This document shows, in pieces, positions 3,737-61,028 of a DNA stretch of 64,000 nucleotides. The position numbers and the translations under genes were made by a program. The notes under the pieces were generated by a model. That model had not been told where the DNA came from, searched no databases, and worked only from the letters and a program-made list of their open reading frames with translations. The stretch is from Obrimoposthia wandeli (Eukaryota), in the NCBI GenBank assembly GCA_977020255.1, contig CDROCS010002783.1, positions 1 to 64,000 on the forward strand. The letters are read 5' to 3'. Every line of letters starts with the position of its first letter. Position 1 is the stretch's first letter.

Positions 3737-4255
3737 ATGTTTCTGCATAATATCAAATTGGTAACATGAATTATAAGGGAAAGGTTTTAAGCTCAATCAA
3801 GGACTTACCTTTTCGCTAATCAAAACCCCAACAATATCGTCTCAAATGTCTATACTATAATACTTTTTAAATCTGGTAAATTATTTTATTATAAAATATT
3901 AATATTTTTAAGACTCCTGCCGAGTAATGGGTTGTAAAAAAGTGTTAGATGAAAGCACTTTACCATTTGATATAAAAGAATTCAATCAATTACTGTTAGT
4001 GTTGACTTGGAACATTGGATAAATCTTAACAATATGAGTGAAAATATGGGAATTGATGCAGTTTATGAACCAGAAATATTTCCTGGACTTCGTTGTATTA
4101 AGTATAATCCACTTTGTGTAAACATTTTTGCTAGTGGGAAAGTTATGATTTTAGGTTTAAAGATTATGAATTTCTGGTTGAACTTATTTTGTATAATATA
4201 TCTCTGTTCACTTGTGTTTTTCCTATTCTTGTTTTATAAACAAAGCTTATTTTGA
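3737..4255 (+). pseudogene. TBP-like gene, copy 1 (intron 3876-3912; frameshifts and an internal stop)
   Basis: MFLHNIKLV...YTIILFKS / 37-nt GT-AG intron / SCRVMGCK...YEPEIFPGLRCIKYNPLCVNIFASGKVMILGLK. The YEPE-FPGL and IFxSGK motifs are TBP-repeat hallmarks. Confidence 0.8.
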
Positions 4256-5354: not shown

Positions 5355-8300
5355 ATGGTAAGATTGTTTTTTCTCAAAAATTATTTTTTAATTTATTTTA
5401 GAATTGTAATATGCGAAGAAAACTGTGTTTCAACACAAATCATGACGAGTGCCGAGCTCAGATGGAGCAGTACTTTGAAGTACGCAACAATGGTAGAAAA
5501 TTATTTGTCTGTCCTGTGTGTCTGTCGGCAGAACAGATCGACTGGACGAGTTTTGCAGATTGACATGAAGATCACCTGACGCATTTCCAGGTTCGAGACA
5601 AGAAATCAATTTTCAATCCTGCAAGATCTTCTCCACAATCTGCTATCACCAACTCCTCTACTGCTATCATGCCTGCTCCTATTCCTGTTGCCGTCAATCC
5701 AGCAGGTCGTAATCCTTCTTTACTAACGCATCTACTCGCAAGAGAAGTGTTATGCCCACTTCAGGTAGCTCTGCATCTCATGGAATTAGTGCGGGGGCTA
5801 GTCGGAATGTTATCCCTGCTAGCTCTGCCGCGAAGAGGGTGCGACCTAATACGTCAGTAAGATCGGGTTTAAGGGGTTCAATAGAAACACTCTCTCTTGA
5901 TGTTTCAAGTGAAGGGATGTTGGTTTTAGATGTGCCAGAATATTTTATTGATACTCTGCGCACAACAATTTCTAAATATATTACCTGTAAGGTGCAAGTC
6001 GGAGTTAAGGTAGAATTCTCTAAGGATGAGGAGACAAAATTTTGGAATGTCTCGAATAAGGGAGTTGAATTCAGCAATGAGTTTATTACTGATGGGATTG
6101 CAGCCCTTAATCAAAAAATTGAGAATTACTCTCAGAATGGTAGTAATTGGACGGTAACCCGTTTCCATGAGATATCATTTATTGTCACAAAAACAACGAC
6201 AATGAATTATCTTCAAGGGCGGAGTTATATTCCAACTCCTTATAGGCTTGGACACACGCTGTGAATATGTCAAACGTTTTCTGCTTTTTATACAGTATTT
6301 TAGCTGTACTTTTTAGGGATTTATTTAAAAGTAACCCTACAAGACCTCGTCAATATTAGGGACTTTTCTCAGAGCCCTTTTATGATGAGGCCGATATGCC
6401 AATGCGTCTGGGCAATATACCGAGCTTGGAGAGGGAGAATCCTAAACTCTCAATCAACGTATTTTCTTTCAATAATTTCGGTTGTATTCCTCCCAATGAA
6501 GAAAATTTTAAAAATCCATTCATTGATGTAATATACCGAACCACAAATCCCAGCGGCACACCGGTAAATCTTCTTCTTTTAGAAAATGATTCTGGTTTTC
6601 ATCATGTGGCGGTTTCTAAACTAAGCAAATTACTAAATTTTAGGAATAAAGGACCTGCTACTCGAATTAGGTGTAATTGGTGCCATAAGTGTCTTCATGG
6701 CTTTAGGAATCCAGTTAGTTATACCAAGCATGAGGCTTTGTGCACAATGAACAAGGAGCATACGACTCTTTATAAGATGCCTTCAAATAAATATATCGCT
6801 TTTACTGATTTCAGTAAAACGGTATCACCTCCTTTTGCCGTTTACGCCGACTTCGAGGCAGTTTTGCCGCCGCATGGGATTCATCATCAGATTCATCTGC
6901 CCATTGCGGCCGGTATGCTGATGTCTCCAATCACAGCTGCTTCAAATGGATTTACACAGGACTAATCTTTTTTCACAGGAGAATCTTGTGTGGTGTCTTT
7001 TCTTAAAAGTTGAAGAAGTTGGCTAGGGATGTTGTTCTTCCATGGTATCGAGATCATGCTGTTGCAGTAATGCGCGCACTAACCCCGGAGCAAGTAGCTA
7101 GTTTCCATGCAGCTACTACTTGTTACCTGTGTAATAAGCGCTGCGTTAACAAGGTCAGGGATCACGACCATATGACTGGGGAATACCTTGGAGTATCTCA
7201 TTTAAAGTGTAATTTATCGCGGAGAATAAATCGTTCTTTTCCTGTTATTTTTCATAACTTGAGAGGATACGATATGCATCCTTAAGCATGCGATAACTCA
7301 GTTTTCACATTGGGATATATCAGTCATACCCCAATCAACTGAGAAATTTCAGGCTATGATCGTACACGTTCATGGAATCAGTATTCGATTTATCGATTCG
7401 CTGCAGTTCCTGAATAGCTCTCTTGCCAAACTTGTAAGTTACCTGGATGTTACACCACTTACGCATTCTGTCTTCTCATCTCAACTCGTGTCCCGGAAAG
7501 GCATATTCCCGTATGACATGGCCACTTCAGAGACTGCTCTCCGGGCAATCACAAGTCTCCCGCCTAAATGGAGTGAAGCTATAGAAGATGTCCAGTATGA
7601 ACAAGCACTGAAGGTTTGGGACGAGCACAGCTGTACATCTCTTTGGGATTACATGCTCCTGTATCTGAAGATCGACATATACCTCCTTGCCGATGTTTTT
7701 ACAACGTTCCAGAAGAAAGCCATCGCTGATGAGTCATTGGAGCCGCTCAACTTCTTCTCGATTCCTGGTAAATTTTAGTAGTAGATTTTAGTAATCATTT
7801 TCAGTAATCGATTTTCTGTAATTTTCAGTAACAATTCTTTTAAAAGTCTTTATTTTAATTCTTTAACAATTCTTTAAAAATCTTTAATTTATTTTTCTTC
7901 CCAGGATTATCATTCGCGAGCGCTCTCAAGTCTTTGCTTCCTTCTACCTCATCGCCTCATGAAATCAAGGTGGAACTTGTTCAGGATCCAGAGATGTACT
8001 CCCTGTTTCGTGACGGCATCAGAGGAGGAATGACATTTGTCAACGAACACAAGGTTGATGCAGTGAATGGTTGCGAGCTCTTATACATTGATGTAAATAA
8101 TCTGTATGGATGGGCTATGTCCCAATTTTTACCTTGTTGGGATTTTAAGTTGGTAACTGACCAGTTAGAGTTAGGGGTTATAATTTCGGAGCTCTCATTT
8201 AAGGATTTACGTTGTAGCAGCTTTGCTCATTTGATGGAGGTGGACTTATCCATTCCTAAAGAGCTGCACGATAAACTAGCCGATCTCCCCTTAGCTCCGT

Positions 8301-10561: not shown

Positions 10562-10669
10562 TTTATTGACAAATTTAAAGCTATAAGAGTATTGTTTTTT
10601 TGCAAGTAATGTCTTTGTTTAGGAAATTACACAAGTTTGAAGATGTTTATTAAATAAAATACATTCAAC

Positions 10670-11127
10670 AAGATATTCATATTATAGGGTCTTAACGCCA
10701 AGTATCAAACCCCTTCCCGCTCGCAAAAAATGTTCACGCATAGAGGATTGTATTTGATATAACGTAGCCCTGGAAAAATTTCTGGTTCGTAAACTGCTTC
10801 CACTCTCATACTCTTGCTCATCTTACTCAGGTTTATTGGTTTTTCTAAGTACTAAGTACTGACACTGATTGATTGAATTCTCTCGATTTTGATATTGAAC
10901 GGAAGAGTGCTTTCATCTAGCACAGCTTTACACCCCATGATTCGACATGTTCCAAAATTATATTAAAACTTAAATGTAAAATAAATTACCAGATATGAAA
11001 ATTATAATAGTATAACTATCACACTTGTGTCGGTACTGATGTGGCTTCGAAATGGTAAGTGTTGAATATTGCTTACAACAATTCCCTTGTAATTAATATT
11101 TACAAATTTGATATTATGAAGTAACAT
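10670..11127 (-). pseudogene. TBP-like gene, copy 3 (37-nt intron at the same site, acceptor mutated)
   Basis: MLLHNIKFVNINYKG...YTIIIFIS / gtaattt...ttttg / GTCRIMGCKAVLDESTLPFNIKIERIQS...YEPEFF. Frameshifted. Confidence 0.75.
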
Positions 11128-13453
11128 TTCTGGTTATTATAAACTGATTATTATAAACTAATTCTTATATATTATTTGAAAATCTATTTTTAGATTACAA
11201 ATTATCTGTATAAACAATATTCCGATATTGATTTTTATTGAAAATGGATAATCAAGATAGAGCAAGCACATATATTGGTTCTGGTAGTAATTTATATGCT
11301 AATATGGATTATAATAGAAATAATCATAGAGAAAATATTAATCCAGTAACTGAAACAATAACAAGACCCACGCGCGTAACCGAAGAACGTGAGCCCTTCA
11401 AGGATATGACTAATACGAAGCGATTTACATAAACAACATTATCAACCAATTGGAATCAGACTTCAAAGGATAAACAATTGAATAATATCACTAAATAACT
11501 TTTCTCGAAGAATTCTCCTCTGTAAACACCTTTTAAATTCCATCTCTGAACATGTATAAATCAGTACATAATATATATTTCTCTACATATTTTAAAATGT
11601 ATATTTAAAAATTTATTGATTATTTTAATTAATTGCGATAATGAAGATGAATGAATAGAGATTGTGATAATGAAGGATGAAGATGAGTGATTGCTTTGAT
11701 GAGAAGAAGGATTGTGATAATGAAGATGGATCGAAGTAATGAAGATTATGATGGTGTAACAATGTATGTATCTTTAATAAAAATTATTCTTTGCTATCTC
11801 TATTTACTTGTTTAACTCATAGGTTTAAAAATGTGTAATAAATAGCTTAAGATTACAAAAACGTTTTCTAGTGACAAATAAAAGTAGAATCAATTATACA
11901 AAATAAGTCATCACTTTTCACTACTTCTACAAGTTGTGCCTCATTTATGGCTTGTTGAAAATATTTTACTTCTAGTAGTGCTGGGTGATTTTTGATTTTA
12001 TCGTTTAGTCCATATAAAAACTGATGTAGTAGTAAACGTTCTCTTAAAGATTATATAAAATCATAATTGATTATCTGATCATTATATTGACGTAGTATAA
12101 GTTTCTTGAGAAAATAACCAATATGATTCACTTTATTTTCTTTAAGCTCTTAAATATACCGTAATTCTTCTACTTATTATTACTTCACACTTAACCTCAA
12201 TGGTGATTTAATTGAAATATTTAATGACTGTACAACTTGATGAGTAGAAGAAATATATGAAAAACTTGAATTTGATTTACTATATTGAAATAATAGTAAA
12301 ATATTGATAATTTAAATACAACTTTCAAGGTTTTATATAGAACTTTAAAGCTTACGATAACTGTTATAATTTTGATGAATTATATGCAATATTATTACTT
12401 TGGTATTAGTTTCTTAAGAAAATTATCAATTACATGTGATATAAAATCATCTTTCAATACCTGTTATGATTGTAAATTTGATATAAGATTCTTTGACATG
12501 AGGTATTTTCATCAGGTTTATGCATAATATTGATACAATACATACATTATTGATATCTTATATCTTTGAAAATAATCAATAATATATGAGGTTATGTAAA
12601 GATTTCGTCATGCAATACATGTTATTATCGTGATGATTTGTATGCAGTCCTTTTAGAGTTGCTTGAAGAGAAAATATCCCATCTCACTTCTAAAACTTTC
12701 TTAATATTCCGTCATACATCACAATATCTGATTAATTCCTCAACTCCTTTTAGGGTATATTTTCTCTTCTGAAATCTCCTAAATACTTCGTAATATCTTC
12801 TTCTACTTTGCATTGCTTCGTGAAATGCTACATAATAAATATCAATGATGATTCAAGGCTGGCTGATGAAATGAATGTAGATAAGTTGCTTGAATATTGA
12901 CTTTGGAAGTAGTCTTTGGATATTTGTTAAATCTATATAATTTCGGTATAACTTTCTTTGAGATCTCGGGTTAAGACTATTTATGATCACGAAGCATCTT
13001 CCAGAGATTTCTCTGTTATGTTTGAAGTTATTGATTGAATCAGATGATCCATGAATTTGAAACGATGGATGAAATTGATAAGTAATTGATAGATATGTCT
13101 CTGTAACTATTTGATTCATTCTCACTAATACTCTTAGAAATGTTCAATATTTTCCTTTTGAAACATATAAATAGTAATTAATCATTTCTATTCTTGAATA
13201 TTGCATACGCTTTAATTACTATCTCTTCTCATATATAACAATCCGGGTATAATTTCTTCATATATCACAAGTCCAACATTTAGAACATAATTAACAAACC
13301 AGGTATAATTCATAAATTTCCTCACATATATCAATCAATTCTAGATTATCCCTTTCAGATATAGTCTCTAATTCATCCTAATGTCAATTCTTTAACACTA
13401 TTCTTCACTATTTAACATTATTTTTTGGGAACCCCCCCTTGTCCTTTAAAACC

Positions 13454-13529: not shown

Positions 13530-14465
13530 CTTACTCACTCTAAAAATGTGGGCGATGTAATTAAGTTACTTTTAGTAGAGTTATTTACTCTAAAAATATG
13601 GGCAATGTTATTTAGTTAATTTTGTCTTTAATTCTCTTAAATTAATTCACGATCAATTACTTGTCTTTAACTTTTCTTAAAACAAATTACGATACTCAAT
13701 ACTTGTCTTTTCACGATACTCAAATACTTGTATTTTTAGAACAGTGCAAAACAATTTACGATACTCAATTCTTGTCTTTTTAGAACAGTGCAAAACAATT
13801 TACGATACTCAAATACTTGTCACCTCTAATTTCCACTAGGGATTTATCCACGTAGTTTGGCTGCTGTCCTCAGTCGAGATCTCTGGTTGGTCTCGTACGG
13901 TCAAGTTGGCCTTCCTTTCCTTTTCTTTATGTCCTGGTTGACTTCTCTTGGAGTCAATCGGTGCCTGAGTTACCGAGCTCCACTATCACTCTGTATAATG
14001 ATAAGGATTCATATTTACGATACCAGCCAGAGATCTCGACTGAGGACAGCAGCCAAACTCCGTGGAGGAATCCCTCGTGGAAATTAGAGGTGACAAGTAC
14101 TTGAGTATCGTAAAAAGACAAGTATTGAGTATCGTAAATAGTTTTGCATTGTTCTAAAAAGACAAGAATTGAGTATCGTAAATTGTTTTGCACTGTTCTA
14201 AAAAGACAAGAATTGAGTATCGTAAATTGTTTTGCACTGTTCTAAAAAGACAAGAATTGAGTATCGTAATTTGTTTTAAGAAAGTTAAAGACAAGACATT
14301 GAGTATCGTAAACTGTTTCAAGAAAAGTTAAAAACCAGTAATTGATCGTGAATTAATATAAGAGAATTAAAGACAAAATTAACTAAATAACATTGCCCAT
14401 ATTTTTAGAGTGAGTATACTCTACAAAATAAACCAAACTAACTTGCCCATACTTTTAGAGTGCAT
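13530..14465. repeat. Foldback-like quasi-palindrome with 44-bp subrepeats and a ~118-bp spacer
   Basis: Arms 13530-13897 and 14016-14465 are inverted. Unit ttgttttgcactgttctaaaaagacaagaattgagtatcgtaaa occurs 2x (left) and 3x (right). Confidence 0.92.
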
Positions 14466-22819: not shown

Positions 22820-23700
22820 GGTCACTAAAAGCGGCACCGAAAACCGCTCCAGGAACTGATCAGGTCAAGTATACTGACCTGGTTCTGCCGCACGAGAACG
22901 TCTGAGCGAGCTTTACAATGCTTGCTTTGACAAATGTGAGACACTTGATACATGGCGAACGTTCAAAACGAAGTTCATCCAGAAGCCACAAAAGGACAGG
23001 TATGATGACATAACTACATGGCGGCATATTGCCGTTATGAGTTGTAGTTATAAGATTTTCGCAACAATGATCGCAAGGAGAATGAGCGACTGGGCCTGGA
23101 CGAATCGAGTTGATCAACTTGATCTCAACGGATGTACATCGAGACCGGAACAGGAGTAGCATATATTGCTTTCCTTGATTTAGCCGATGCCTGTAAACTT
23201 CATCTGGGGCATGCTCCAGCGAAGTAATGTGGATCCAACCGCCATCGAACTACTGGCAGACATTTACAAAAAGAATCTGACGAACATCTCCTGTGGTAGC
23301 CAGAAGATTGACCGAATAAGGATCAGACGAGGAGTGCGACAAGGATGTCCTCTCTCGATGCTGCTCTTTAACATGGCCATCAACCCAGTCATTGAGGCGG
23401 TGAAACAATACAGTGGCCCTGGATACAAATTCGATAGCGGCGAAGAAATATGCGTTCTAGCGTACGCAGATGACTTAGCGCTCATATATGGATCTGAGAG
23501 CGGTCTTCAACGAATGATCAATGTAGCAGATGCGACAGCCAGCAGCCTACAACTGACATGCAGGCCAAGCAAGTGTGGGTATTAAGGATCCCTCAACAAG
23601 ATCAATCTCAGGTAAATCACTTCCAACTTCGTGGAGAATATATTCCTGAGGTAGTTAATGATCGACCTTACATATATATAGGAGGCGACAGAAATGCTGG
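22820..23700 (+). pseudogene. Non-LTR retrotransposon RT fragment (R2/NeSL-like), less decayed copy
   Basis: KTAPGTDQVKY; TWRHIAVMSCSYKIF; AFLDLADA; GVRQGCPLSMLLFN; LAYADDLALI; CRPSKC; PYIYIG. Confidence 0.88.
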
Positions 23701-25083
23701 TGCCAAAAATTGAACTCTTGATGAGAAAATAATAAAAGCTTATGTAAAAAAGTATTGGAATTATCGACCGAATTGGGAATAAGTAATTAATCTTTACCTT
23801 CACTATTTACTTTCAAATCCATTTGTTTATATACGTATTTTTTAGTTATTTATAAAACTTAATAATTTTTTTCTTAACATTTTTGAAATACGTACGTTAT
23901 AGTTTTACATAGAATCCGTTTAATCTTGAATCATTGGGTCAGATTTTAGCTTTGATCTCTTTCTAAAAACTGCTTCTAAATTCGGATATTCTGGCCAACG
24001 TTGTACTGCATTATCAACTGAATTTGCGATTAGTAACTGAAAATATAGAACCCTACTTGAGATAAAAAGACTGCCATTCTCAAATTCACATTTGTAATTT
24101 GAACCGTATCGAAAATTGTAATAACTACATATTAAAACAAATAATAAATATTTTTTAAATTACATCAAAAGTTGGATTTTATCACGATTAAGTAACATTA
24201 TCAAATTGAAAGCTTTAGCTAGAAGTATAACAATTGTGCAATTTTATATAAAAATAATTTTAATAAAAGCGATTTTATTAAAAAATATATATTAAATTGC
24301 AACATGTATTCGTGTAAAGTAAAAAAATTATCAAGACTCACTTAAAATCAATTTTCGTAATGCACATATTTCTAAAATGTTCTAAATTTACTTTGATTCA
24401 ATTTAAGGTTACTGTAGATTAATACAATCTTTACGTTGTTTTAAATAAGTTAAAACTTATTTTAAATGTTGTGTTATTCTTAAATTCTAATTATATAAAG
24501 TATTAACATAAAACATAGTTATAAAGTATAGCAAAAGTGTAGAATGCCTTCCAAATATTAATAAAACTCAAAATTTGGTTATCATGAAATATCATGCTAA
24601 TTTTAAATTGAAAATTTTCAAAATATATTTTCTTCGTTTATTTCTAGGATATATGTTTAAAATATTTTAAAAAAGTTTCTACTGCAGTTTTTGCTAGCTC
24701 TTACTTTATGATAAATTTAAAACCTTAAATATATATAAATCGAGATAAGCAACTTAAACAAAGAATATATTTCCATTTAATTATATTTTACTAGAAATTA
24801 TGAAATAAAAAAGATTTATTTGGGATTAATGGAAGATATTTGAGACTTATCATGTCTGTTTCGCATTTTAATATCCTTCCTTTAAAATACTTATTTTCGA
24901 ATATTATTATACAATCAGGATATGTATTGTAACCCTTTAGTATCAAATACGATTGAGATAGTGGATTAATATCTTGTGTCTTCATTATTTGATAATCAGA
25001 AATCATTTCTGCTTCACCCATTCAAAGTTCTGAAACAGATCAGGAAGTCTGTAGATGAATATTATTTGACAATGTATCAGACA
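22850..25083. repeat. Right arm (part A) of the inverted duplication
   Basis: Reverse complement of 1-2205; judged by eye as mid-to-high 90s percent identity. Confidence 0.95.
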
Positions 25084-27835: not shown

Positions 27836-28886
27836 CTAAATGAGGCTATAATAGAAATTACAAGAACAATAAATTACAAAAGACGGCAAAACTGCAGCTC
27901 CTTCTACCACTTCTGGACTCTCTGTGGTACTTTTATTGACCTCGTTGTAATGTAGCTCAATCCTGGATCTTATTTCCTTATCACAACACAGCAATATTGG
28001 CGACATTCCAGTTTGCTCATTTACTCGATCAATCTTCGCTCCTTTATCGATCAAACTGAATATTAGCTGGATTATCTGACCAACTTCTTCACTCTACAAA
28101 ATATAAACGATAAATCAATATACATTTTACTTTTTCACGCTTGTTTAATTTTTTCATCAAAAACGCAACAGCCGTGTCTCCATTTTTGTCTTCCTGATTT
28201 ATATTATTGATGTGTGCCAGAAGATAAAATATTATTTCTGAGAACTCCTCCATCAAAGCCACATGAAGAGGAGTAGATTGGTTGACATCAGATTTGTTCA
28301 CAAGCCCTCTCACACCTTTGACACCCAATAAATCAATGCAGTGTTTCATTTCTCTCATCTTAATTAAGTATGTCAATATGGTGTCGCCTGTCGCTAAAAT
28401 ATTCCATTGCGTAACACTCAACTTCATCAACTTTCTAATAAAGTCCGAGTCGTTGTTCTCAAAGGCAACTAACAGAAATTTATCCATATATCGTTGTTTC
28501 AGGGCATATTCTGTAAAGGTATAAATCTGCTTGACAGTGTTGAATGGGACGATGTCAAAGGCATCGTCAAAGAAGTCGTCAGTAAGAATTGCTGAAATGT
28601 CTTCTTTAGCCATTAGTGGAAGAGCCTCTTCTATCAATTTAAAAAAGCCTTTTTCAATACACATAATAAATGTATCCTTGTTGATGAACTGTAATGCTGA
28701 CTTTGACTGCATAAATGAGAGAGCGATCCTGATCAAATGGAATGGGGAAAAATATCAATGAAATTACTTTTCATTATTCAAATCGAGGGCCTTTTGGAAA
28801 ACTGTGATATTGTTTCTATATTTAGCTCCGATATCAGATCCAAACTGCACCAACACACTGATGGTATCCACTGCTCTTTGCGGAAT
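27836..28886 (-). CDS. Ankyrin-repeat protein; 5' exons not located
   Basis: NQSTPLHVAL, DKNGDTAV, LIDKGAKID, TGMSPILL. In-frame GT-AG introns 28767-28729 (39 nt) and 28130-28094 (37 nt). Confidence 0.8.
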
Positions 28887-33841: not shown

Positions 33842-34429
33842 CTAATTACAAAGACTTTCAACATTGGAAAATAAGCAATCATTTTTGAATGCATACTGCT
33901 CACGTACATCCACTTGATTATAATGATGCATATTTATCTTTAAAGTCGGTAAATCATATATTTGATTAGGTAATTCCGATTCATAAAACATTCTTTCAAT
34001 ATCAGCTTCTTTCATACCGTAACTTAATGCTAAACTTTTATTATCAATTTCTAATTTGAAAGCTTGTCCTTTAGTGCGAGTAATACGTATTTTGTCTTCA
34101 TTGCTAAGGTAAATGACATATTTACTATTAGTTGGAGTTATATACTTGACGAAAAATTCTCCATATTTCATTTTCAAACCTGATTCAACTTCAGTTTTTA
34201 TTGATTTCTCCACAACATAATCTATAATTAACCCCCCTTTAATGGATAAAGGAGAATAATAAAATGAAAATTCCGTTAGAGCATCTTCCCAAGCTCCCGG
34301 TAAATTGATTGAGCTTTGATAATCAATTTTGAAACTACTTGCATTATTATCCGGTTGAGTTAATGGCGATCCATTACTTGGTAATACAACATACATTGAA
34401 GTCATTATATTTGAGAAGCTAATATCCAA
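33842..34429 (-). CDS. Polinton minor capsid (penton) protein, N-terminal part
   Basis: MYVVLPSNGS...PDNNASSFKIDYQSSINLPGAWEDALTEFSF matches the recalled penton motif (LPSN..N..S.F..L.G.WEVAL.EI). Confidence 0.8.
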   Translation of the reverse strand: MDISFSNIMTSMYVVLPSNGSPLTQPDNNASSFKIDYQSSINLPGAWEDALTEFSFYYSPLSIKGGLIIDYVVEKSIKTEVESGLKMKYGEFFVKYITPTNSKYVIYLSNEDKIRITRTKGQAFKLEIDNKSLALSYGMKEADIERMFYESELPNQIYDLPTLKINMHHYNQVDVREQYAFKNDCLFSNVESLCN

Positions 34430-35429
34430 CTAGGTTCAGTGTATCCATGCCACTTAACTAGATATTGTTTATGCTTTCCTCGACCCTTTGTTTTCACTAT
34501 TTCTTGAATTCTATATACTTTGGGCTTTGACGGTAATACTTGTAGTTCTTCATGATAAAACTTGCCACTAATTTCATTATTTGTTTCATCTTCAATGAAA
34601 TACATTAGTGGGTTATGACTAGTATCAATTTTAGTTGTTTGGAAAACCTCATCACTCCAATTCTCTTTGAAATTCTTTATAAAAGGAGTAGTACTTATTT
34701 GTGATATTCGAACATAATCTCCAATTTATATTTCGGTTTCTTTACAACCTGTTTTTGATTACGTTGTGACCAAATTTCCATTGCATTTTTATCAGAAATA
34801 TCAACTGGTCTCTTTCCATCTAAGCTTCTATATGGACTATGATTATATGCTCGTATTATTTTGGGTATAACGGTAATCCATCTCTTATTTCCCACTTTAG
34901 TGAAATATCTTTTCAAACGATCTCTCAATGTTTGATCAAACCGTTCTACTAAAGCTGTTTTATATTGAGAAAACACAGAATAATGATTGATACCATGTTT
35001 CTTCAATAAGCCACTAACATTTGTATTGTAAAACTCCTTCCCTTTATCGGTTTGAAAATTAACTGGTTTCACGTCTGAAAATAATTTTTCCATTGCTTTC
35101 AGTACGTCAGAACCTGTTTTAGACTTTAATGGTATAGCTCTTGCTGTTCTGCTGAAAACATCAACACACGTTAAAATATATCGGTATCCATCATTAATAC
35201 GATCATAAGGAATCATTTCCATTAAATCAGCATGCCATAAATCATTAGGTCCGCTAGTCTTGTATGATCTCGTTGGAAAACGACGTCTCATCGGTTTGTT
35301 TAAACTGTACGCTAACTGATTTCCCAGCCATGTTTTGGTTTCCTTTTTTGTCTTCTTCACTTCTTTTGCTAATTTTGAAATTCCAGTATAACCAACGGGA
35401 TGACTTGGATTGAACCATATCTTCTCCAT
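34405..35429 (-). pseudogene. Polinton retroviral-like (rve) integrase with C-terminal chromodomain; one frameshift near 34715
   Basis: WHADL; LTCVDVFSR; FQTDKGKEF; VERFDQTLR; then IGDYVRIS, NWSDEVF, GKFYHEELQ, QYLVKWHGY (chromodomain). Confidence 0.92.
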
Positions 35430-35944
35430 TACAACAGGATGAATTGATTTTTATTTTGAACTTCAGTATAGATGGAAGTGAACTCATACAAAATTAATGT
35501 TTTTAGCTCAAAATACATGTTTATAACCACCATTTTATAAATCTGCTTAATAGAGCCAACTATAGGAACTAGAAAACCAAGAAATCTTCCACTCTGTTTA
35601 TACAATAACTTACGTTTACCAGCTTGTGTTTTAGCTCGAAACATATCAAGAAGTGGCTTTTTATGCTGTTTTAATTTATTTGGATTTTTAACCGATATTT
35701 TACCGGAAACTATTTTCTGGATCATATTTAGCATATCATCAATTACAAACGTAGGAAACGATTTAAGAATAGCAGGTCGTCGATTTGTGGGTGCACGCAT
35801 AAGAAAATTGAAATAGGCAATACTCCTAGATTTCTTATCTGATTTCAGAACAACTATTTGTTTCATATTCTTTCGTTCGTTTAACACTGATTTAAATAAT
35901 GTCTTAGCTTCAGGTTTAATAATTTCCTTTTTGAAAGTCATCAT
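35429..35944 (-). CDS. Polinton basic protein with a QxGG(R)FL amphipathic motif
   Basis: KRKLLYKQSGRFLGFLVPIVGSI. Paralog at 46741-47070 has KQNGGFIGAVIP. Confidence 0.65.
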   Translation of the reverse strand: MMTFKKEIIKPEAKTLFKSVLNERKNMKQIVVLKSDKKSRSIAYFNFLMRAPTNRRPAILKSFPTFVIDDMLNMIQKIVSGKISVKNPNKLKQHKKPLLDMFRAKTQAGKRKLLYKQSGRFLGFLVPIVGSIKQIYKMVVINMYFELKTLILYEFTSIYTEVQNKNQFILL

Positions 35945-36588
35945 CGCGAAACTTGTTTTTTCATTTGTTTATAGATGCTAATACCATTAGGATTGAATAT
36001 ATCAGTTTTAATTCTTAATTCATCGGGACAATCTTGAGTAAAATCAATGAAAATGTATCCATGAGGAGTAGTAGTAGCATCTTGAAATGATTCGATTAAG
36101 AAATTTCTATTATTCGGATAGGCTTGACGTGAAACAAAATCAACAACAGTTTGATCACGTGGATTCTTGAAAAGAACAAAATAATGTACATTTAAATTAC
36201 GAGTTCTATGATTACCACCCTGATGAAATAAATTTTGTGTAATGAAAATAACAGTCACTTCACGATGTTTTGCTATTTTAGTGAATACATTATTGAAATC
36301 ACTCTCTTTATTGGCTTCCTGGTACAAATCATGAATAACAATAACATCATGACGTTGTAATCGATCAGTCCAATTATCATCAAATCCCTTAATGACTTTA
36401 ATATTTTTAATTTTCTTAAACTCAATACTAGTTAAACCAGCTTCTCCATCTCCACCCTGATGCCAATATATCTTATTAAACTTGAATTTAAAATATTTAT
36501 TATTTTGAAGTAATTTACAAATAAAATGGGTTTTCCCACTTCCACTTGATCCTACAATTTGGAAAACCGCATTATTTTTCAATTCCAT
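35941..36588 (-). CDS. A32/FtsK-like packaging ATPase
   Basis: Walker A GSSGSGKT; Walker B VIVIHD (D to H); FITQNLF; LNVHYFVLFKNPRD. Confidence 0.92.
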   Translation of the reverse strand: MELKNNAVFQIVGSSGSGKTHFICKLLQNNKYFKFKFNKIYWHQGGDGEAGLTSIEFKKIKNIKVIKGFDDNWTDRLQRHDVIVIHDLYQEANKESDFNNVFTKIAKHREVTVIFITQNLFHQGGNHRTRNLNVHYFVLFKNPRDQTVVDFVSRQAYPNNRNFLIESFQDATTTPHGYIFIDFTQDCPDELRIKTDIFNPNGISIYKQMKKQVSR

Positions 36589-36681
36589 ATTAAAGGATTA
36601 GTGTAATAGGATAATGTTTATAAGACATAAATATATCAAAAGTAATTTATTATAAAACATAGACAGACTATAAAGAAACAT

Positions 36682-37320
36682 TTACATAGATTCACAGAAT
36701 CGATTAAAAAGACGGATTTGAGAACACATAATATCCGTTGGTGTAGCAATACTACGCCTAGATTTAACAAGGCGAGAAGCAATACTAACAGGCATAGAAA
36801 GAGATAAAAATGCGATAACAATACCCACAGAAAGATCAATCCCATAATGTCCACAAACTAAACCTTTTCCTCCGTTTTCGATATTTTCTTGAATAATACT
36901 ATTAGTTAGTTTATAATACTTCATCACTGTTTCTCTCTTTTTTATGAAAACAGATGTAAACTTTAGTTCTTTATATTTAATATGACCTGAAATAGATGTA
37001 TTGATAACATGAGTAAATCCGGATTTGAGTAGACTAGTTTCATCAAACCCATCACGATAATTAACAATATAAAGTTTATCTGTTAGAATTTCACTCATTT
37101 TTTGACCTGACTAACTTTTCTTTACAAAGTTGACAATATCTAGAATTAAACAATCTATTAAAAAGACGTCTCATATGGTTCATTTCCATACTAGAAGCAT
37201 CGCCTATTATATGCTCTATCAAATCTAATCTATTTAAAAATTTTAATAATCATAGCATCTTCTGTTCTTCCAGGTGTTACTGCTCCTGATTCTGTTTCTT
37301 CATTTAATTTTTCCATCTTT
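36682..37320 (-). CDS. Dual-specificity-phosphatase-fold protein, copy 2 (DSP domain ORF 36682-37098 is open)
   Basis: SEILTDKLYIV, GFTHVINTS, GGKGLVCGHYGIDLSVGIVIAFL, ASRLVKSRRSIATP. The N-terminal extension is frameshifted. Confidence 0.8.
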
Positions 37321-37470
37321 TAAAGAGTTAGATTATTTTATCTTATAATGAATTACTTTGATTGCGGTATGAGACACATTATCTGGAGTAGATTTAATTG
37401 AAACATCATCAACAATCAATTCATTCATCTTTATATTAGAACTAAATAAGCTTTGTTTATATATAATAAA

Positions 37471-38014
37471 TCAATATAAATGTAAATCACATGAGTGAAT
37501 AAGAAAGAAAATACAAGTATGAGAAGATATATTATACAAAATTGTTTCAATAAAATATTCATAGTCTAGAGTTTTTATACCTAATATCTTAATCTTGCCG
37601 CTTGCGAAAATATTTACACATAGCGGATTATACTTGATATATCGCAGTCCTGGAAATATTTCTGGTTCGTAGACAGCTTCAATTCCTATACTTTTGCTCA
37701 GCTTGCTCAGGTTTAGCGCTTCTTCGAAATTTGTACTAACAGTGATTGATTGAATTCTTTCAATTTTTATATTAAATGGTAACTTGCTTTCATCTAATTT
37801 TGATTTACAATCCATTATTCTACACGAGCCTAAATATTATAATTAATTTTTTAATATAAAATTATATACCAGTTTTAAAAATTATTATCGTATAATCTTC
37901 GCATTTGTGTCGATACTGATGCGGTTTTGAAGTGCGAAATGGTAAATCCTTGATACAACCTTTAATCTTTCCCTTATAATTTATATTCACTAATTTAATA
38001 TTATGAAGAAACAT
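37471..38014 (-). CDS. TBP-like protein, copy 2; intact after splicing (exons 38014-37870 and 37829-37471; ~167 aa)
   Basis: MFLHNIKLVNINYKG...YTIIIFKTG / 40-nt GT-AG intron / SCRIMDCK...RIQSITVS...YEPEIFPGLRYIKYNPLCVNIFASGKIKILGIK. Confidence 0.85.
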
Positions 38015-38158
38015 GTTTTAATAATATAAACAAGTTCAGGTTTTATACTAATTTGAAAAATCAATATTATTATTGTTATCCAATTAGAATAGAGAATTAT
38101 AGGATAAACAATTGATTATTTTATATTATTATCTGTTATAATTATGTATGCCGCCAAT

Positions 38159-38551
38159 ATGAATGAAGAAGATCTTTATCAACGAGTTCATAATTATTAA
38201 GCATATGAGATGCACTTTTTGAAGAAACCTCAGAATTCTAATTTTATTTTCCATGCTAATGTAGAGAAGCTTAAATTTGACTATCAGGTTTCAAATTTGA
38301 ATTCAGTAGATGTAGACCGAACCAATAACTTTTTCAAACAACTTCGAATCAAATATCAAATTCAAGAAAACAAATTTATAATCAAAGGACATGAAGCTAT
38401 TTTCAAGCGTGAGAATGGAATTATTGTTAATGAAATTCCTTCAGGAAAGCAATGGTCTCTATGCATAAGAATTCAAGGATACAAAGTCAGTACCTGTGGA
38501 ATTGTAACCCCGGTATGGAAGATTATTGATGGAATATTGACTGAATTTTAA
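38159..38551 (+). pseudogene. Accessory ORF X, full length with one in-frame stop
   Basis: MNEEDLYQRVHNY*AYEMHFLKKP...WSLCIRIQGYKVSTCGIVTPVWKIIDG. Paralog at 2777-3031. Confidence 0.7.
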
Positions 38552-38825
38552 TGATTTAATAAATATTTATCCTTATGTAATTTAAATATTTTATATCAGA
38601 TTTTTATAAGAATTATTTGTGATATATTAAAGATCAAACACACACATGTATTAATATAAATATGATGTAACCCTATTTTAAAAATAGAAAATACATACAT
38701 TTAAAATTATTTTATCATTTAAAGACAATAAAAAGAAGAAAACTCATAAAATTACTAAAATTTATTTTAAAAACAAAAAGTCCTAAAGAGGACTGATGAT
38801 GCCTTCTCATGTAGATCATCTACTT

Positions 38826-39004
38826 CTAACTTGGGTGTGGAATGATGATTGGGTTTCCATCACTCCAGAAGCAAAGAAATCCGGGTTGTTCTCTAGGCTC
38901 CAGTGCTTCTTTCTTGAGAAATGACTCAATCAGCTCTATTTTCTCTTCCAGTGAACAGCTGCTCTCCAATATATGAGCTAACATTGTATCCTTATTGATT
39001 CCAT
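38826..39004 (-). CDS. Accessory ORF S paralog
   Basis: MLAHILESSCSLEEKIELIESFLKKEALEPREQPGF; homologous to 3190-3399. Confidence 0.55.
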
Positions 39005-39359
39005 TTTAAAATAATGATAAGAAATGAAAAAAGGTTTTCTTATATAATCTTCTTGAACAGTTTAATTGGTTTAGCATATGCACATGTATTGACATTTAGT
39101 TACGTAAGATACAAGCTTTTCATATGAAAAGTCAAGGTTCATACTAACATGTAATTATTTAACGAAATAATTTCAACATTAAATATGTTGTTAATTATTA
39201 TTTCATTTATATAATAACTTTTAAATTATTACTATAAGAATACTACTGCAACTGTATATTTACTTTAAAAATTATACTTTATACATTAATTTAACGACTA
39301 ATTTATTTAATTCATATTCACAACTGTAAATCGAACTGATAATTATTTGACTAATTGTA

Positions 39360-40028
39360 AAAGTTTATTTTTTTTTATTTCTATTTGACTTTTAGTATAT
39401 GTTTGAAAGACATGATAGTAGGACAAATATCTAAGAACATTATCCTTCAATTGTGTTTTTCAAACATTATTGGAATAATCATCGAACCTTTTATGGACAT
39501 CATATTTTGACTGTAGAAATTATCTAAGCAGCAAAATGTGATGTTCTATGACGGGAATATGCTGTGAGCTTATCCGCTTTGTCCAGAGCTGCTGATGTGG
39601 GTGTGAATAACTGTCTTATGATTGGCTGATGTGAGTCATTTCAAGCCATGACTCATAGTCAGCACATGGGCTTAAGACATAGACCTTGACCTTGAGCACA
39701 TGGTGGGCACATAAGCTCATAACCTCGTAATAACCTTGAGCTCATAGTAAGTATATGAGCTCCAGTGATGTATAAAAGTGCACTATAGAACAAAGGGCAT
39801 GAATCATGACTTTGGAATATCATGCGTACTCTAGAGAAATTTACTACTTAGAAAAACCTACTTATGAAGTCATGGGACCTACATGACCTTGAACAATTCA
39901 TGTGTACTCTGGATAAATTTGACCTACATCACATGACCTTGACCTACTTTTTGACTATATCATGACCTTAACTTGTCCTCATACCCCTTTAGGAGGGCTT
40001 TGTTCCAGAAGTGCCACATCTACCTACT
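39360..40028. repeat. Right TIR
   Basis: Reverse complement of 32230-33045. Confidence 0.9.
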
Positions 40029-46370: not shown

Positions 46371-46740
46371 TGTAACATAAGGAAACTGATTGATAAGAAC
46401 CTTTTAGTTGATTCATTCCATGATGCTACTAAACAAGCACATTGGTATATATTTATTGATTTTACACAAGCTTGCCCAGATAATTTACGTGTTTTAACAT
46501 ACATACTTATTTCTGAGGGAGTAATTCTATAAACAAATTGACAACAATTATAAAAAATAAATTTGCAATTCCTTTTAAGAAGTTGATAGTGAAACGTAAT
46601 CAAAAAGTAAAGCCTAATAAATCAAAAAAATAATCATTAAGAAAAAAGAAGTGAATAAATTAATCAAATCTGTAGTTCGAAATAAAAGAAAACTTAAATG
46701 GGTTTGAATATAACAATATTCAAATTGAACTTGTTTTAAA

Positions 46741-47070
46741 ATGAAGAAAATACAAAGAAGCATACCCTATTTTAAAGCTTTGGTCAAAGCCTCTTCTCAT
46801 AAGAGAATAATTATTCTTAAAGTATTTCCATCTTTTGTTGTAGATGATTTATTAGAAGTTTTGTATAATATAGTTTTGGGTCGAATAAAAGTAAGTAAAT
46901 GTAAAAATGTATGAAAGAAATATAGAAAAACACTTCTAGATATTGCTAATCTAAAAAGTAAAAAAAGGAAACGAAATATTATTCTTAAACAGAATGGTGG
47001 TTTCATAGGGGCTGTTATTCCAGTTGTTGTTTCAATTATCAGTAGTATTATAGCTGCGACACGTACATAA
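46741..47070 (+). pseudogene. Polinton QxGGF protein paralog (one in-frame stop)
   Basis: RSIPYFKALV...FPSFVVDDLL...ILKQNGGFIGAVIPVVVSII; aligns with 35429-35944. Confidence 0.75.
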
Positions 47071-47144
47071 ACAATTATTTCAAAAATCAGCTAACCCTTT
47101 ACCTAAATTTTAATTTTCTATATATTCAAATTTTTGTAATATAG

Positions 47145-47636
47145 AAGATATGGTTCAATCCAAAAGATCCAATTGGCTACACAGGAGTTTCAAAATTAGC
47201 AAAAGGAACAAAACAGAATTACAAGAAAACTCAGAAATGGATGAGCGATCAGTTAGCCTACAGCCTTAACAAGCCGATGAGAAAAAGGTTTTCAACTAGA
47301 GCTTAAAAACCAGCGGTCTTAATAATTTTTGGCAAATGGATTTGATGAAGATGATTCCATATTCTTCCATTAATAAGGGATATCGATGTATTTTAACATG
47401 TATTGATGTATTTAGCAGGTTTGCTCGTGCAATTCCAGTTAAAGCAAAGTCTTCAATAGTTATGCTTGAAGCAATTACAGAAATATTAAAAGAGGATATT
47501 CCACAAAATGTGCAAACTGATTTAGGAAAAAAAATTATAATAAGCAAGTTCAATCTTTATTTAAACCAAATAATATAAATCACTACTCTGTGTTTTCACA
47601 GTATAAAGCAGCAGTAGTAGAAAGATTTAATCGTGT
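47145..47636 (+). pseudogene. Polinton integrase N-terminal fragment, cut by the Gypsy insertion
   Basis: IWFNPKDPIGYTGVSKL, LAYSLNKPMRKRF, LTCIDVFSRFARAIP, HYSVFSQYKAAVVERFNR. Confidence 0.85.
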
Positions 47637-47639
47637 AAG

Positions 47640-50600
47640 GGTTGTTATTGTTGGTTGATCTCCTGAGCGTGGAGTTGTCGATTGGATCGGGGTTGTCGAC
47701 AGGATTGGTGGGATCTCATCATGAATTTTACAAGGAGTGGCTTTTACTGATGTTAGCAGTATCGAGGGCGTCAATTATGCGGTTGACTGCAACGCCGGCA
47801 CAACCTCTCTGTTGATTGTTTCACCGTCATGTTCCACGATTACTGGCGGATTATTTCTCGGAAGTGAGGCTATGTGCTGACTGACGCGCACTTCATGAAA
47901 TGGAGGCAGAGTGGACCTCACTATTTATGTGGAGAAGGGAATGAACTGAGGGAGGTATTTCCGGTTTCTAATGATGACTTGATGCAATACTTGTCATGAT
48001 CTAACACCTCCGTCACCATGCCTGTTCTATCCCACCTTTTGGGATGGTTTCCTGGGCCATTCTAAACAAAGCACTTGTCACCAACATAAAGGGGCAGTAG
48101 TGGACGGGTGCTAGCATCAAGGGTCTCTTTTGATCGAGTATAACGTGCACGTAGAGATGATTCTTTCAGAGACCAGGCCTCTCGCCAAGTCATTTTAATA
48201 TGTGGGTTGGATAACTTTTCCAGTCGATTCACAAAGGACATTGAATCTCGCAGGGGCTTTCCAAATACGATCTGAGAGGGTGATATTTCGCAGTCTGGAT
48301 CATAGATGTTCCGCTGTTGCAAGAGCGTCCGGAGGAATCGGTTGTTGTTGAGGTTACAAGTGGGACCCGTGTTAGATCTGCGGAGTCGTTTTGTGGCTTT
48401 TACGGCAACTTCAGCTCTACTGTTGGACTGTGGATGATAAACGGAGGATACGCAGTGGATGAAAACCCATCAGAGGAAAATATTCTGAGTTTAGCTACTT
48501 GTAAATTCTGGTCTGCCATCACTGGAGAGTTCTGCTGGAACCCCGAAGGTTGCAAAAACTGATCGAAGACATCCGGGAGGGAAACAGAACACCTCGGTCC
48601 AACAGGATAGTCTATCACCAATGACTAGATAGTGGTACCCAGCAAAATCAAAGTAGTCGGCATAGATAGACTCGAATGGTGTTGAGGGGGTGACGTGGGA
48701 ATGGCTGGGAGAGATGGCTGTGATGGGGCGTTGAGATTGCAGTCAGTGCAGGCTGCCCGATCAGCGTGTATATCTGCTGTAATTCCTGGCCAAAACCCAA
48801 TGGTGCGAGTGCGAAGCTCCATTGACGACGTGCCCTGATGGGCAGCATGGATGTTGTCTAGAACGGTGCGGTGCAGTGATGGTGATATTACGACTCGATC
48901 CATATACATGACGGCGCCATCGGATAAGTATAGGGCCTCGCGAAACTGCCAGAATGGTGCAGCGTTAGAAAAGTTAGGAAGGTTTCCGAGTCGTGGTTAC
49001 AACGCACACCGGCTGCTAGAAGAGCTGGCCTCCCATAGCGATCCGGCATATTTGAGATGGTGGCGGGACTATATGCTGATCACCATCATGTCAGCTGATG
49101 TCTACAACAATCTTCCGCTTCCACAGATCAGCGCAGATACAGTAGAGGAATATTTTCGCATGCATTAGACAAACAATCCATACGTGACACAAGTATCACC
49201 AGTTAGTAACCACATCAGCTGACACTGCATGAAGCCTATAAGCATAGTCTTCTATTGGGAATCTTCACAGTGCAGAAAGATGATGGGGATAGCGTTGATC
49301 TCGACGCACGAGTGCATACTCTCGCGAAGGTTGGATATGCACCGTACGCATCAATCAAAGCCTCAAGACAGCCAAAGAGATTTATACATGATACAACTGA
49401 AGCCACACACATCAACGCATGTGTTCCAGCCCTCTTATCCAGAGGCATCATAGAGAAGACAAGCAAAGGACCTTTCTGCTCACAAATAAGGCTTGTACTC
49501 AAAGCAAATTCACAATTATGACGTTTCCAAAATTGTTCATGAAAATCCCAAATATGGGTGAAAAGTTAAAGACCATTCCAAAAGGTTTGGCTGCAGCAAA
49601 CATTGATTTGACTGGCACATTTTACCAAATGCCCTTGGACAAAATGTCAAGAAATTTGACAAATGTTTGGCACCAGAACCAATACTCTCGATTCACGAGA
49701 CTGCCGATGCGTCTGAGGCAAAGTCCCGCCATTTTACAGTGGACATTGACGACAATAATGAAAGTTTTCAAAGGATCTGGCAAATACCATTAATTCATGT
49801 CCATATCGATGATATTTTGATTATAGCGCCTATGAAAAGTCCTATGTAGTAACATCTTTAAAAATGTTTAGACAAATGGAACCTACAAGTAAATCTGGAA
49901 AAGTCGCAATTGTCTCCTGCGCACCAAGTAGTATACTGTGGTATAAACCTTGATTTGACGACACAGCAAGTGAGCTTGTCAAAGGAAAAGTGGAGCATGT
50001 ATAAACAGCTAATACTCGAGAAAGACTATTCGCCACAGGCAATAGGATACGCGAAATACGTGGCAAACGTTTTAAGATGACCTTCTGTCGGTAAATTATT
50101 TACATGCCGATTTGCAGGAGAACATTTTTGATCTTTTCAAAAGACAAGCAGCTACTTGGAAGTGGAATGAGACTCCACATTCAAAATTATGGGCCACAGA
50201 TGCTACCCCCCACATCTATCGCTATAATGCAGTTGAAACCAGTTCAAACTGTACATGCAGCACTAAAAATCCCCGAGCAGAATATTTATATTCAGGAAGC
50301 TAAGGCTCTCCTCTGGGCCTGTTGGATGGGGAAAACGGGAAGCACAATTCTCTGCGACAATCAAGTTTTGGTATGGACAACCAAGACCAAGAGGATTCCC
50401 AGCGATATGCAGGAGTGGTGGATTATCGTGTCAGTTCAAATGTTAGTCACAACTAAGCGAATAAAGGTACAGTTTATTCCAACGGAGCAAAACCCGGCAG
50501 ACAAGCCATCGTGTGACATGCTTCGCACACAGGAGCAGGAAACAAGCTGGATTACAGCATTCCAGTAGATGACCTATAATTCTATTACATAACCAGTGTG

Positions 50601-59280: not shown

Positions 59281-59680
59281 CCTAATTGTCAAGATGACAA
59301 TAAAAACTTACTCCTAATTGTCAACTACGGACAATGAGCGAACCGAATTGTCAGCTAGTGGACAATGAGTCTTACCGAATTGTCTACTAGGGACAATGAA
59401 TATTTATCCGAATTACCAACTAGGGGCAATGAACGAACCTAATTGTCAGCTAGGGACAATGAATCTTACGGGAAAAAACGTCTGGTAGGTTTCCTAATTG
59501 TCGCTGGGGACAATGAATAAAGGTCCGATCCTAATTACCAACTAGGGGCAATGATTGTGCTAAAGAGACAATGATCCTAATTACCAGCTAGGGGTAATGA
59601 ATTTGTTTATTATTTTAAAACGTAGAATTACCAACTAGGGGTAATGAAAGTAACCTAATTGCCTACTAGGGGCAATGAAT
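59281..59680. repeat. Array of 12 imperfect palindromes, consensus CCTAATTRYC-N5-8-GRYAATGAA
   Basis: Units seen directly, spaced ~25-55 bp apart. Confidence 0.92.
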
Positions 59681-59777
59681 GAACCTAGTCGGTGGTCTTA
59701 CCAGTTACTCGCTGATTCCGTCGACTAGCGGGATGTCCGATGTAGATCCGTAGGTAGTTTGTGGAATCGGCTTCGAG

Positions 59778-60180
59778 TGACTTCGACTTTATCTTTCAAT
59801 TTGACTTCGACTCTAATTTTCAATTGACTTCGACTTTATCTTTCAATTTGACTTTGACTTTAATTTTCAATTGACTTCGACTTTAATTTCAATTTGACTT
59901 CGACTTTAATTTCAATTTGACTTCGACTTTAATTTCAATTTGACTTCGACTTTAATTTCAATTTGACTTCGACTTTAATTTCAATTTGACTTCGACTTTA
60001 ATTTCAATTTGACTTCGACTTTAATTTCAATTTGACTTCGACTTTAATTTCAATTTGACTTCGACTTTAATTTCAATTTGACTTCGACTTTAATTTCAAT
60101 TTGACTTCGACTTTAATTTCAATTTGACTTCGACTTTAATTTCAATTTGACTTCGACTTTAATTTCAATTTGACTTTCAA
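59778..60180. repeat. 23-bp minisatellite (GACTTCGACTTTAATTTCAATTT), ~17 units
   Basis: Period 23 (59942, 59965, 59988...). The first four units are 24-25-bp variants. Confidence 0.97.
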
Positions 60181-61028
60181 TTTGTCGACTAATGATCTAG
60201 AACAGTTTATTTTTAATTGATAATCACACAAAAAATGTCACCTGTCTATTTCGATTTTCTCCTCGTAGTTCCTGTGCCGTTACCTCTTAGTCGATTCCGT
60301 ATTTGTGTTTGTGCTAAATTGTCGCTTCCTTATATATGAACAGTCGTGTCAATCAAATGACAGCTGTTAACCGTAGTTGCTGAAAGTTCCTGTTGAGTCT
60401 CCGAAGCCTGTCAATCAATGACAGCTGCAAAAAATAAATTTTAGTTATTGCACGCAAATGTGCTTACCTTTCTTCTTCTTGATTGACGGTTTTAATTAAC
60501 CGTTTTTCTTTCTTAATTTAGTGTCTTTTCCTTAATTACTTTTTGCAATTGTCCCTTTTGGGTTAATTAATTTAACTTTTATACATTTTCGCATAATACA
60601 CGACCTTCGTGGTCCTCCTAATTTTACCCTAATATTTCACTAATTTTACTTCTAAAACTCAACTTAATATTTTAATTTAATTTTCGACCTTGCTTTCAAG
60701 GATTTTTATTTTAGTATTTAATCAACTAAAATATTTAATTTTCTTAATTCTCAACCTTAACATACCTCGGGGGTTCCAAAAAAGTTACGTCCCCGGAACG
60801 TATCGATTTTACTTAAACAAGCCTTTGGCTGTTGTTTTTAGGTTCATCCCTACAAAATCAATCATTCAACTTCAACAAACATGCCCAAAAAAAAATTTTC
60901 CAAAACCCGGTTTTTAGTGGAAAATTATAATGCATAAGTTGGAGCATGTCTCAATTTATACATTATTACTACGACAACCAAAAAAAATTATACAAGGGAA
61001 AGGATCAAGGGTGATTGTCGGGGATTTG

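Follow-up and report, generated by a model that had tools for sequence, protein, structure and literature searches.

A short, intron-containing TATA-binding-protein gene in a Polinton lineage, and a candidate promoter word before its late-type genes

The mini-TBP gene and its intron

We analysed 64,000 nucleotides of contig CDROCS010002783.1 (C2783) from the 1.35 Gb genome of Obrimoposthia wandeli (assembly GCA_977020255.1); this whole stretch is called the window. A truncated Polinton fragment within it carries a gene for a short TATA-binding protein (mini-TBP), and the genome holds at least 150 close copies of the element. The fragment comprises the following features.

33843..39383, minus strand: truncated Polinton fragment of family A, 94% identical to a longer copy elsewhere, ending within the gene after the integrase
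34405..35450, minus strand: rve integrase with chromodomain, split over two frames in the window's copy
35941..36597, minus strand: A32-like packaging ATPase (Pox_A32, E 2.6e-5)
36616..36622, minus strand: TATAAAC word, 35 nt before the ATPase start
36682..37428, minus strand: dual-specificity-phosphatase-like gene (DSPc, E 3.8e-7, below the curated cut-off)
37455..37461, minus strand: TATAAAC word, about 30 nt before the ATG at 37428, the candidate start of the phosphatase-like gene
37471..37829, minus strand: mini-TBP exon 2 (2 nt, 118 codons and the stop), encoding the end of the N-lobe, a short linker and a complete C-terminal repeat with the YEPExF stirrup
37830..37869, minus strand: putative intron, 40 nt, phase 1, GT-AG, within the codon of the Gly that follows the second Phe of repeat 1
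37870..38014, minus strand: mini-TBP exon 1 (48 codons and 1 nt, ATG at 38014), encoding the N-lobe strands, a shortened stirrup and the second Phe of repeat 1
38041..38047, minus strand: TATAAAA, an ordinary TATA-like word 33 nt before the mini-TBP start and a candidate promoter to be read by the host
38201..38551, plus strand: small conserved ORF, diverging from the mini-TBP gene here, adjoining it in many relatives and sometimes duplicated

The mini-TBP gene is real and has two exons, which together comprise 167 codons. The original prediction had joined an upstream exon to the annotated reading frame across a 40-nt GT-AG intron, giving a product of about 167 amino acids, and its exon and intron coordinates are borne out. 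Without splicing, the exon 1 frame reaches a stop two codons into the AT-rich insert. Exon 2 matches the Pfam TBP family (PF00352, E 3.9e-11) and 35 solved TBP sequences in the PDB (best E 2e-13); exon 1 by itself has no Pfam match. The (V/Q)NIV motif named for the repeats is not literal here, reading VNIN in repeat 1 and QSIT in repeat 2.

A database search with exon 2 returned 8 proteins, five of which are 149-153 amino acids long and intronless. All five match both exons, with 39-51% identity between exon 1 and their N-termini. In four of them the two matches abut at the Gly split by the insert, and in the fifth they are separated by a 4-residue gap. Since the intronless relatives match both exons and these meet at the Gly, the insert is missing from homologues and lies inside one codon, which supports by homology the intron predicted at 37869-37830. 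Comparison of families A and B shows purifying selection on each exon (dN 0.15 and dS 1.46 for exon 1, dN 0.15 and dS 1.04 for exon 2), other pairs being mostly saturated at synonymous sites. From these comparisons we infer with high confidence that the 40-nt insert is a spliced intron. Runs X1-X4 (contigs, one sample) cover genes and spacers alike, as DNA would, and among the joints listed none skips 37830-37869.

Short introns across the lineage

The insert is found in many copies. It is 40 nt long in family A (29 of 30 loci scored; GT in 28, AG in 29) and 36-39 nt in family B, to which the copy at 3737 belongs (GT and AG in all 29 scored of 30 loci). In families D, E and F it comprises 35-42 nt, with GT and AG in 5/5, 4/4 and 8/8 scored copies, respectively. 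The TBP gene of family G is intronless (2/2 scored, a third copy lying outside the scoring), as it is at 13 of 14 metagenomic loci; in the remaining one (L042) the same site holds a GT-AG insert of 40 nt. That is, an insert of this type recurs in five diverged families of the host genome and in one metagenomic element, with length (35-42 nt) and sequence varying between families, constant GT and AG ends and a fixed codon position.

Two further mini-TBP copies lie in the window, as does an insert in a polymerase gene.

3737..4255, plus strand: second copy (family B), with a 37-nt GT-AG insert and a frameshift, in an internally deleted element at about 2822-8689 with polymerase pieces
7764..7900, plus strand: GT-AG insert (137 nt) that interrupts the polymerase gene in the family-B copy, with the break matched in family A
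10628..11127, minus strand: third copy (family C), dead, with a 37-nt insert ending in TG, in a 4.6-kb derivative at about 8687-13322

An intron at the same position, of diverged sequence and 37 nt long, had been predicted for the copies at 3737 and 11127. The length holds in both, and the former keeps GT-AG ends in a frameshifted gene; the latter does not end in AG.

A derivation of the intron from the host TBP gene was considered and rejected: the host TBP genes on contig C238 are unbroken at that site, and introns in host TBP genes, about 47 nt long, lie at positions other than that of mini-TBP. Long open frames in the host genome were likewise dismissed as intronless copies, those checked containing 39-nt in-frame inserts.

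Other genes of the lineage are interrupted in a similar way. In families A, B, E, F and G (for example L219, L238, L210 and L217), the second codon of the adenovirus-type protease gene is directly followed by a short GT-AG insert, which is present even where the TBP gene is intronless and absent from two metagenomic relatives, L035 and L045. Together with the polymerase insert, this suggests that short GT-AG introns are a habit of the lineage and not specific to TBP. A 40-nt GT-AG stretch with a CTAAC branch-like word at 37356-37317 (minus strand) is a candidate intron, recognized from sequence only, in the phosphatase-like gene; with this intron, the start of that gene would fall 30 nt after the TATAAAC word.

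The GT-AG inserts in the TBP, protease and polymerase genes set these elements apart from vertebrate Mavericks, which are reported to be intronless (PMC8097293). Introner inserts are known from dinoflagellate polinton-like viruses (PMC12166617). Where short spliceosomal introns occur in core genes of non-protist Polintons, as we propose here, annotation by open reading frames alone misses half of the mini-TBP gene.

Polinton context

The longer family-A copies are about 14.5 kb long. From one end the gene order is small ORF (reverse), TBP, phosphatase-like gene, ATPase, ORF and integrase, followed by a probable minor capsid gene, an ORF, the major capsid gene, protease, exonuclease-like gene (presumably so, from a motif), an ORF and polymerase. 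Imperfect terminal inverted repeats of about 190-890 nt, 77-85% alike and about 14.5 kb apart, were found in four of five neighbourhoods. The elements thus have the hallmarks of Polintons, namely pPolB, rve integrase, A32-like ATPase and adenovirus-type protease, with protease and polymerase taken from other copies or relatives. For the major capsid protein, the L042 relative, which shares 57% identity with family A, was modelled (pLDDT 67). The model is a double jelly roll that matches iridovirus and Sputnik capsids (E 3e-14); by sequence there was no Pfam or PDB match. The element has no RNA polymerase gene of its own. The Polinton setting proposed for the gene is supported by integrase, ATPase, protease, polymerase, capsid fold and terminal repeats.

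With Polintons, Mavericks and adintoviruses (PMC8502044, PMC8097293) these elements share, as far as those are reported, pPolB, the rve integrase with chromodomain, the A32-like ATPase, the adenovirus-type protease, the double jelly-roll capsid and terminal inverted repeats. They differ in carrying mini-TBP as a regular gene, and in their short GT-AG introns. In the host genome, 17 of 20 stretches chosen around diverged ATPase and capsid matches contain the mini-TBP gene; two of the three sampled stretches without it also have no whole ATPase, and the third is L209. First-look candidate counts, which are not copy numbers, were similar for TBP, ATPase and capsid queries (30,582, 31,070 and 30,238). 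Mini-TBP is a regular gene of a wide Polinton/Maverick lineage, and since many metagenomic Polintons carry it as well, its description as an unusual Polinton gene was overstated.

All three mini-TBP copies in the window reside in decayed or truncated elements. The copy at 37 kb belongs to a 5.5-kb fragment and has one change at a position that is invariant in 116 relatives. The family-C derivative (8687-13322 type) occurs in at least 40 places in the host genome. It is non-autonomous: ATPase, integrase, capsid and polymerase genes are missing, and those for TBP and phosphatase are dead. Of 30 copies, 23 were scored, and these have three lesions in common. We did not accept family C as proof that TBP is dispensable, all core genes being missing in 6/6 family-C stretches.

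No family could be assigned to the small ORF at 38201-38551, for which Atlas leads were unnamed NCLDV clusters, with DUF2738 at 10% of members. Its motif is W..I.G.K...G...P.W, and the product may perhaps be, at a guess, an OB-fold DNA-binding protein.

Protein fold and residues

A profile search gave 1,091 matches including cellular TBPs, the best 120 of which are mostly 144-165 amino acids long; 48 representatives at 50% identity have E<1e-30. The natural intronless relative P0003, modelled with AF2 from 116 sequences in place of the window's own product, folds into a two-lobed TBP saddle with a pLDDT of 95.7. In this model 150 residues align to residues 63-239 of yeast TBP (rmsd 2.8 A), and comparison with yeast, human and archaeal TBPs (PDB 1ytb, 1cdw, 2z8u and 1mp9) gave Z 13.4-13.7 and rmsd 2.4-2.8 A, in agreement with the two-repeat saddle that had been predicted. 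Each of the N-lobe segments with H1 and H2 comprises 17 residues, versus 27 and 30-31 in four cellular TBPs, and the model has no helix of 4 or more residues before residue 84. As modelled, the N-lobe is without most of helices H1 and H2.

Three of the four intercalating Phe residues are kept (in 115-116 of 116 relatives); the first slot is Lys in 96/116, these slots being taken from the sequence alignment of 116 relatives, in which the slot of the lost Phe could be off by one. The asymmetry that had been proposed for the protein is thus present in the reduced repeat 1, with the correction that this repeat holds only one of its two Phe residues. The Glu pair of the C-lobe stirrup (E in 111/116 and 115/116) corresponds to E144/E146 of plant TBP, a TFIIB contact (PMC10005294). 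Also retained are the Asn/Gln centre and the two basic residues at the ends. In place of the usual residues, family-specific ones occupy the N-lobe slots Asn (113/116), Arg (115/116) and Met (116/116), plus a near-invariant Lys, and the C-lobe slots Ser (113/116), Thr (100/116), Cys (116/116) and Asn (116/116). We take the Asn, Arg, Met, Ser, Thr, Cys and Asn slots to be positions that face DNA in cellular TBP.

In summary, mini-TBP shares with cellular and archaeal TBPs (PF00352) the full-length two-lobed saddle, the YEPExFP stirrup and three of four Phe residues, but it is about 30 residues shorter, has lost the first Phe and has a rebuilt DNA face. It has the TBP fold, yet lacks two defining features of cellular TBP, the four Phe residues and H1/H2 in both repeats. 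One subclade (L047-L052, L225) has TBPs of 165-169 amino acids, with longer H1/H2 segments (L051 subclade) and the same DNA-face residues and upstream word (see below); KilA-N, phospholipase-A2-like and C2H2 genes lie near its TBP gene.

Origin of the gene

A quick tree was built from 50 rows. In it a long branch (SH-aLRT 100) separates the 29 mini-TBP-type Polinton proteins, without exception, from the TBPs of host, archaea and NCLDV, and recent capture from the TBP of this host was rejected on this basis. Polinton L227 encodes a canonical four-Phe TBP (11568-12122, minus strand) that is placed elsewhere on the tree, also on a long branch. It likely represents a second, separate capture by Polintons. 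The L227 contig is filed under a bacterial MAG and has TATAAAAG words before genes other than ATPase and capsid. A first scan of viral contigs had found two NCLDV-type TBPs only; L031 and L032, of this type, group with eukaryotic TBPs. The host's own TBP-family genes (L185-L190) include a tail-to-tail pair on C238 and further genes on C60, C1092 and C968; two are intronless, divergent copies without the first Phe, and the divergent gene on C968 is split. Features of the host TBPs suggest that the host is probably an invertebrate animal.

A promoter word before late-type genes

We inspected the region from -75 to -20 before 49 late-type genes from 22 elements, some of which are related. The hexamer ATAAAC occurs 20-75 nt before 40 of the 49 genes and before none in antisense, compared with a mean of 2.8 and a maximum of 8 in 1000 shuffles. 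It precedes the ATPase in 11/11 cases, at -33 to -49 on the sense strand, the major capsid gene in 8/8, exonuclease-like and phospholipase-like genes in 4/4 each minor-capsid-like genes in 7/10, integrase in 5/10 and protease in 1/2. The signal is thus weaker for integrase, and it is seldom present before a further, 120-aa gene (1/9). None of 20 mini-TBP genes is preceded by the hexamer, and TATATAA (6) or TATAAAA (3) is found there. Late-type genes show no upstream enrichment of canonical TATAAAA (ATPase 0/11, capsid 0/8). With its flanks the hexamer reads Y-ATAAAC-R, where the C at position 7 is fixed by the definition of the top hexamer; 15 of the 49 words begin with C.

In the window's family-A fragment the word occurs 7 times in sense and once on the opposite strand, versus 16 and 15 times in 54 kb of flanking DNA. 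It is present across elements that share only about 36% ATPase identity, and absent before the ATPase in four distant Polintons (L226-L229), three of them partial. L227, with its four-Phe TBP, has no word before ATPase or capsid and one ATAAAC before the integrase; the hexamer is strand-biased in L226 (7 versus 2) and L228 (6 versus 1). Because the four elements without it before the ATPase are distant and three are partial, the link between word and protein is confounded by phylogeny and amounts to a correlation within one clade. For TBP-less control elements, scans of viral contigs gave no relatives, and genome contigs gave 5 loci. The TATA box of PolB, proposed earlier as the binding target, looks wrong, the word marking ATPase, capsid and other late-type genes.

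Proposed function

We propose that mini-TBP is the element's own promoter-reading factor for late-type genes (packaging, capsid), acting through YATAAACR with host TFIIB and Pol II, and assign this reading a probability of roughly 0.6. Early on, the mini-TBP gene would be expressed by host Pol II with host TBP, in many cases from a TATA-like word of the ordinary kind, and the spliceosome of the host would take out the intron. Mini-TBP would then bind YATAAACR, which for host TBP is a weak TATA box, by its remodelled concave face. The kept glutamates of the C-terminal stirrup would recruit host TFIIB and hence Pol II. Surfaces of H1 and H2 are used by TFIIA, TAF1, NC2, Mot1 and Brf1, and loss of these helices from the N-lobe would remove regulatory surfaces and might give freedom from host control. 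The outcome would be an early-to-late switch within an element of about 15 kb. The N-terminal repeat of TBP covers the 3' half of the box, so the rebuilt lobe would sit over the changed letter; binding of TATAAAC by wild-type TBP depends on a Hoogsteen pair. It had been suggested that the protein redirects or blocks host Pol II: the promoter word favours redirection, and blocking of host initiation finds no support here.

Other explanations account for parts of the evidence. Mini-TBP might act as a decoy, binding TFIIB or promoters rich in AT and dampening transcription of the host, with host TBP reading YATAAACR as a weak TATA box. The TFIIB stirrup kept beside lost regulatory surfaces would suit such a role, the host machinery is reported to be 27% as active on TATAAACG as on TATAAATA (PMC10005294), and host TBP can accept C(-25) in a TATA variant (PDB 1qn3). 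However, a pure decoy needs no near-invariant, rebuilt DNA face, the words that start with C weaken host use further (PMC10005294), and the word avoids the mini-TBP gene itself, which makes this reading unlikely. We regard it as rather improbable that the protein has another task on DNA, binding terminal repeats, a replication start or a packaging site, or repressing early promoters: the acidic stirrup and a sense-strand word at a set distance of 33-49 nt before ATPase genes would be left unexplained. Divergent TBPs can nevertheless switch substrate, as does the Giardia TBP that is reported to bind single-stranded DNA (PMC12209930); TBP-like folds are found in rolling-circle initiators (Z 6-7), and the usual neighbour ORF of mini-TBP has NCLDV-type leads only.

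A general substitute that keeps ordinary TATA specificity and merely raises the TBP supply for element genes would fit the three Phe residues, the Asn/Gln centre and the basic ends, and YATAAACR is one or two letters off a TATA box. The lack of TATAAAA enrichment before ATPase and capsid genes speaks against it, the constancy of C7 being a matter of hexamer definition, and we give this version little credence. It is very improbable that the insert stays unspliced, leaving a broken passenger or a product of exon 2 alone. Such a product could start at an in-frame ATG inside exon 2, where the database proteins P0001 and P0006 begin, but comparison of families shows purifying selection on exon 1, GT and AG are kept while length and sequence vary, and host genes carry introns about as short.

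Returning to the promoter-reading model, we tentatively extend it, at somewhat under even odds, to a fuller account. A wide Polinton lineage may run a private switch by means of the smallest known two-lobed TBP, whose rebuilt N-lobe would read TATAAAC and not TATAAAA, escape TFIIA, NC2 and Mot1 and bring host TFIIB and Pol II to the genes for capsid and packaging. At least two uptakes of TBP by Polintons would have taken place, and an intron gained in this host would tie the switch gene to host splicing. A preference of mini-TBP for C7 words among TATAAACA, CATAAACA and TATAAAAG would favour the promoter-reading model. If true, the elements would have a simple early-late cascade with a marker for late genes of Polintons, which would bear on gene timing and on virion making by animal Polintons. 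Mini-TBP would also be a natural altered-specificity TBP that, with a sixth of the core shed, shows which surfaces Pol II initiation needs.

Comparison with other viral TBPs

TBP-like genes of Nucleocytoviricota and mirusviruses share a viral TBP fold with mini-TBP (BFVD matches, E 5e-9 to 1e-4) and are distant in sequence. Most of these viruses carry their own RNA polymerase, unlike the mini-TBP element.

In the proposed model, mini-TBP has in common with ORF24, BcRF1 and UL87 of beta- and gammaherpesviruses, as reported (PMC7498053), a virus-encoded TBP-like protein that uses host Pol II and a private TATA variant before late genes. In the Polintons this variant would be YATAAACR (assigned by sequence position only); that of the herpesviruses is TATT. 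The herpesviral proteins are described as large, with an N-terminal Pol II-binding domain, and act in a six-protein complex (PMC7498053). In contrast, mini-TBP is a bare saddle of 145-170 amino acids that keeps the TFIIB stirrup; an N-terminal CTD-binding domain of the herpesviral type is absent, the whole protein aligning to the TBP core, and the likeness is at fold level only (BcRF1 ranks 30 among structure matches). By analogy, mini-TBP would work like herpesviral TBP mimics without being one of them and, if so, would parallel the herpesvirus strategy by a separate route.

Starrett et al. 2021 (PMC8502044) use the label 'TBP' in their legend to Fig. 5, where the label alone gives neither element nor TBP type; the supplement of that paper does not mention TBP. 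We found no published description of a Polinton mini-TBP or of the promoter word in a search outside which Repbase, key reviews, figures and bioRxiv supplements lay, and these may mention the gene; 2026 preprints and a nematode Polinton paper did not mention TBP or TATA. New here are the intron and its spread, the lineage-wide introns, the residue map and the likely second TBP capture.

Other features of the window

A further decayed Polinton fragment at 46392-47706 (plus strand) contains ATPase, ORF and integrase pieces. Positions 1-2171 and 22909-25083 form a 2.2-kb inverted duplicate (97% identical) with non-LTR reverse transcriptase pieces, and the self-inverted stretch at 13536-14462, with 44-nt tandem repeats, resembles the terminal repeat of a mobile element. 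An ankyrin-repeat exon at 28089-28754 (minus strand) probably belongs to a host gene, and tandem arrays with units of 30/95 nt and 23 nt occupy 59296-60184.
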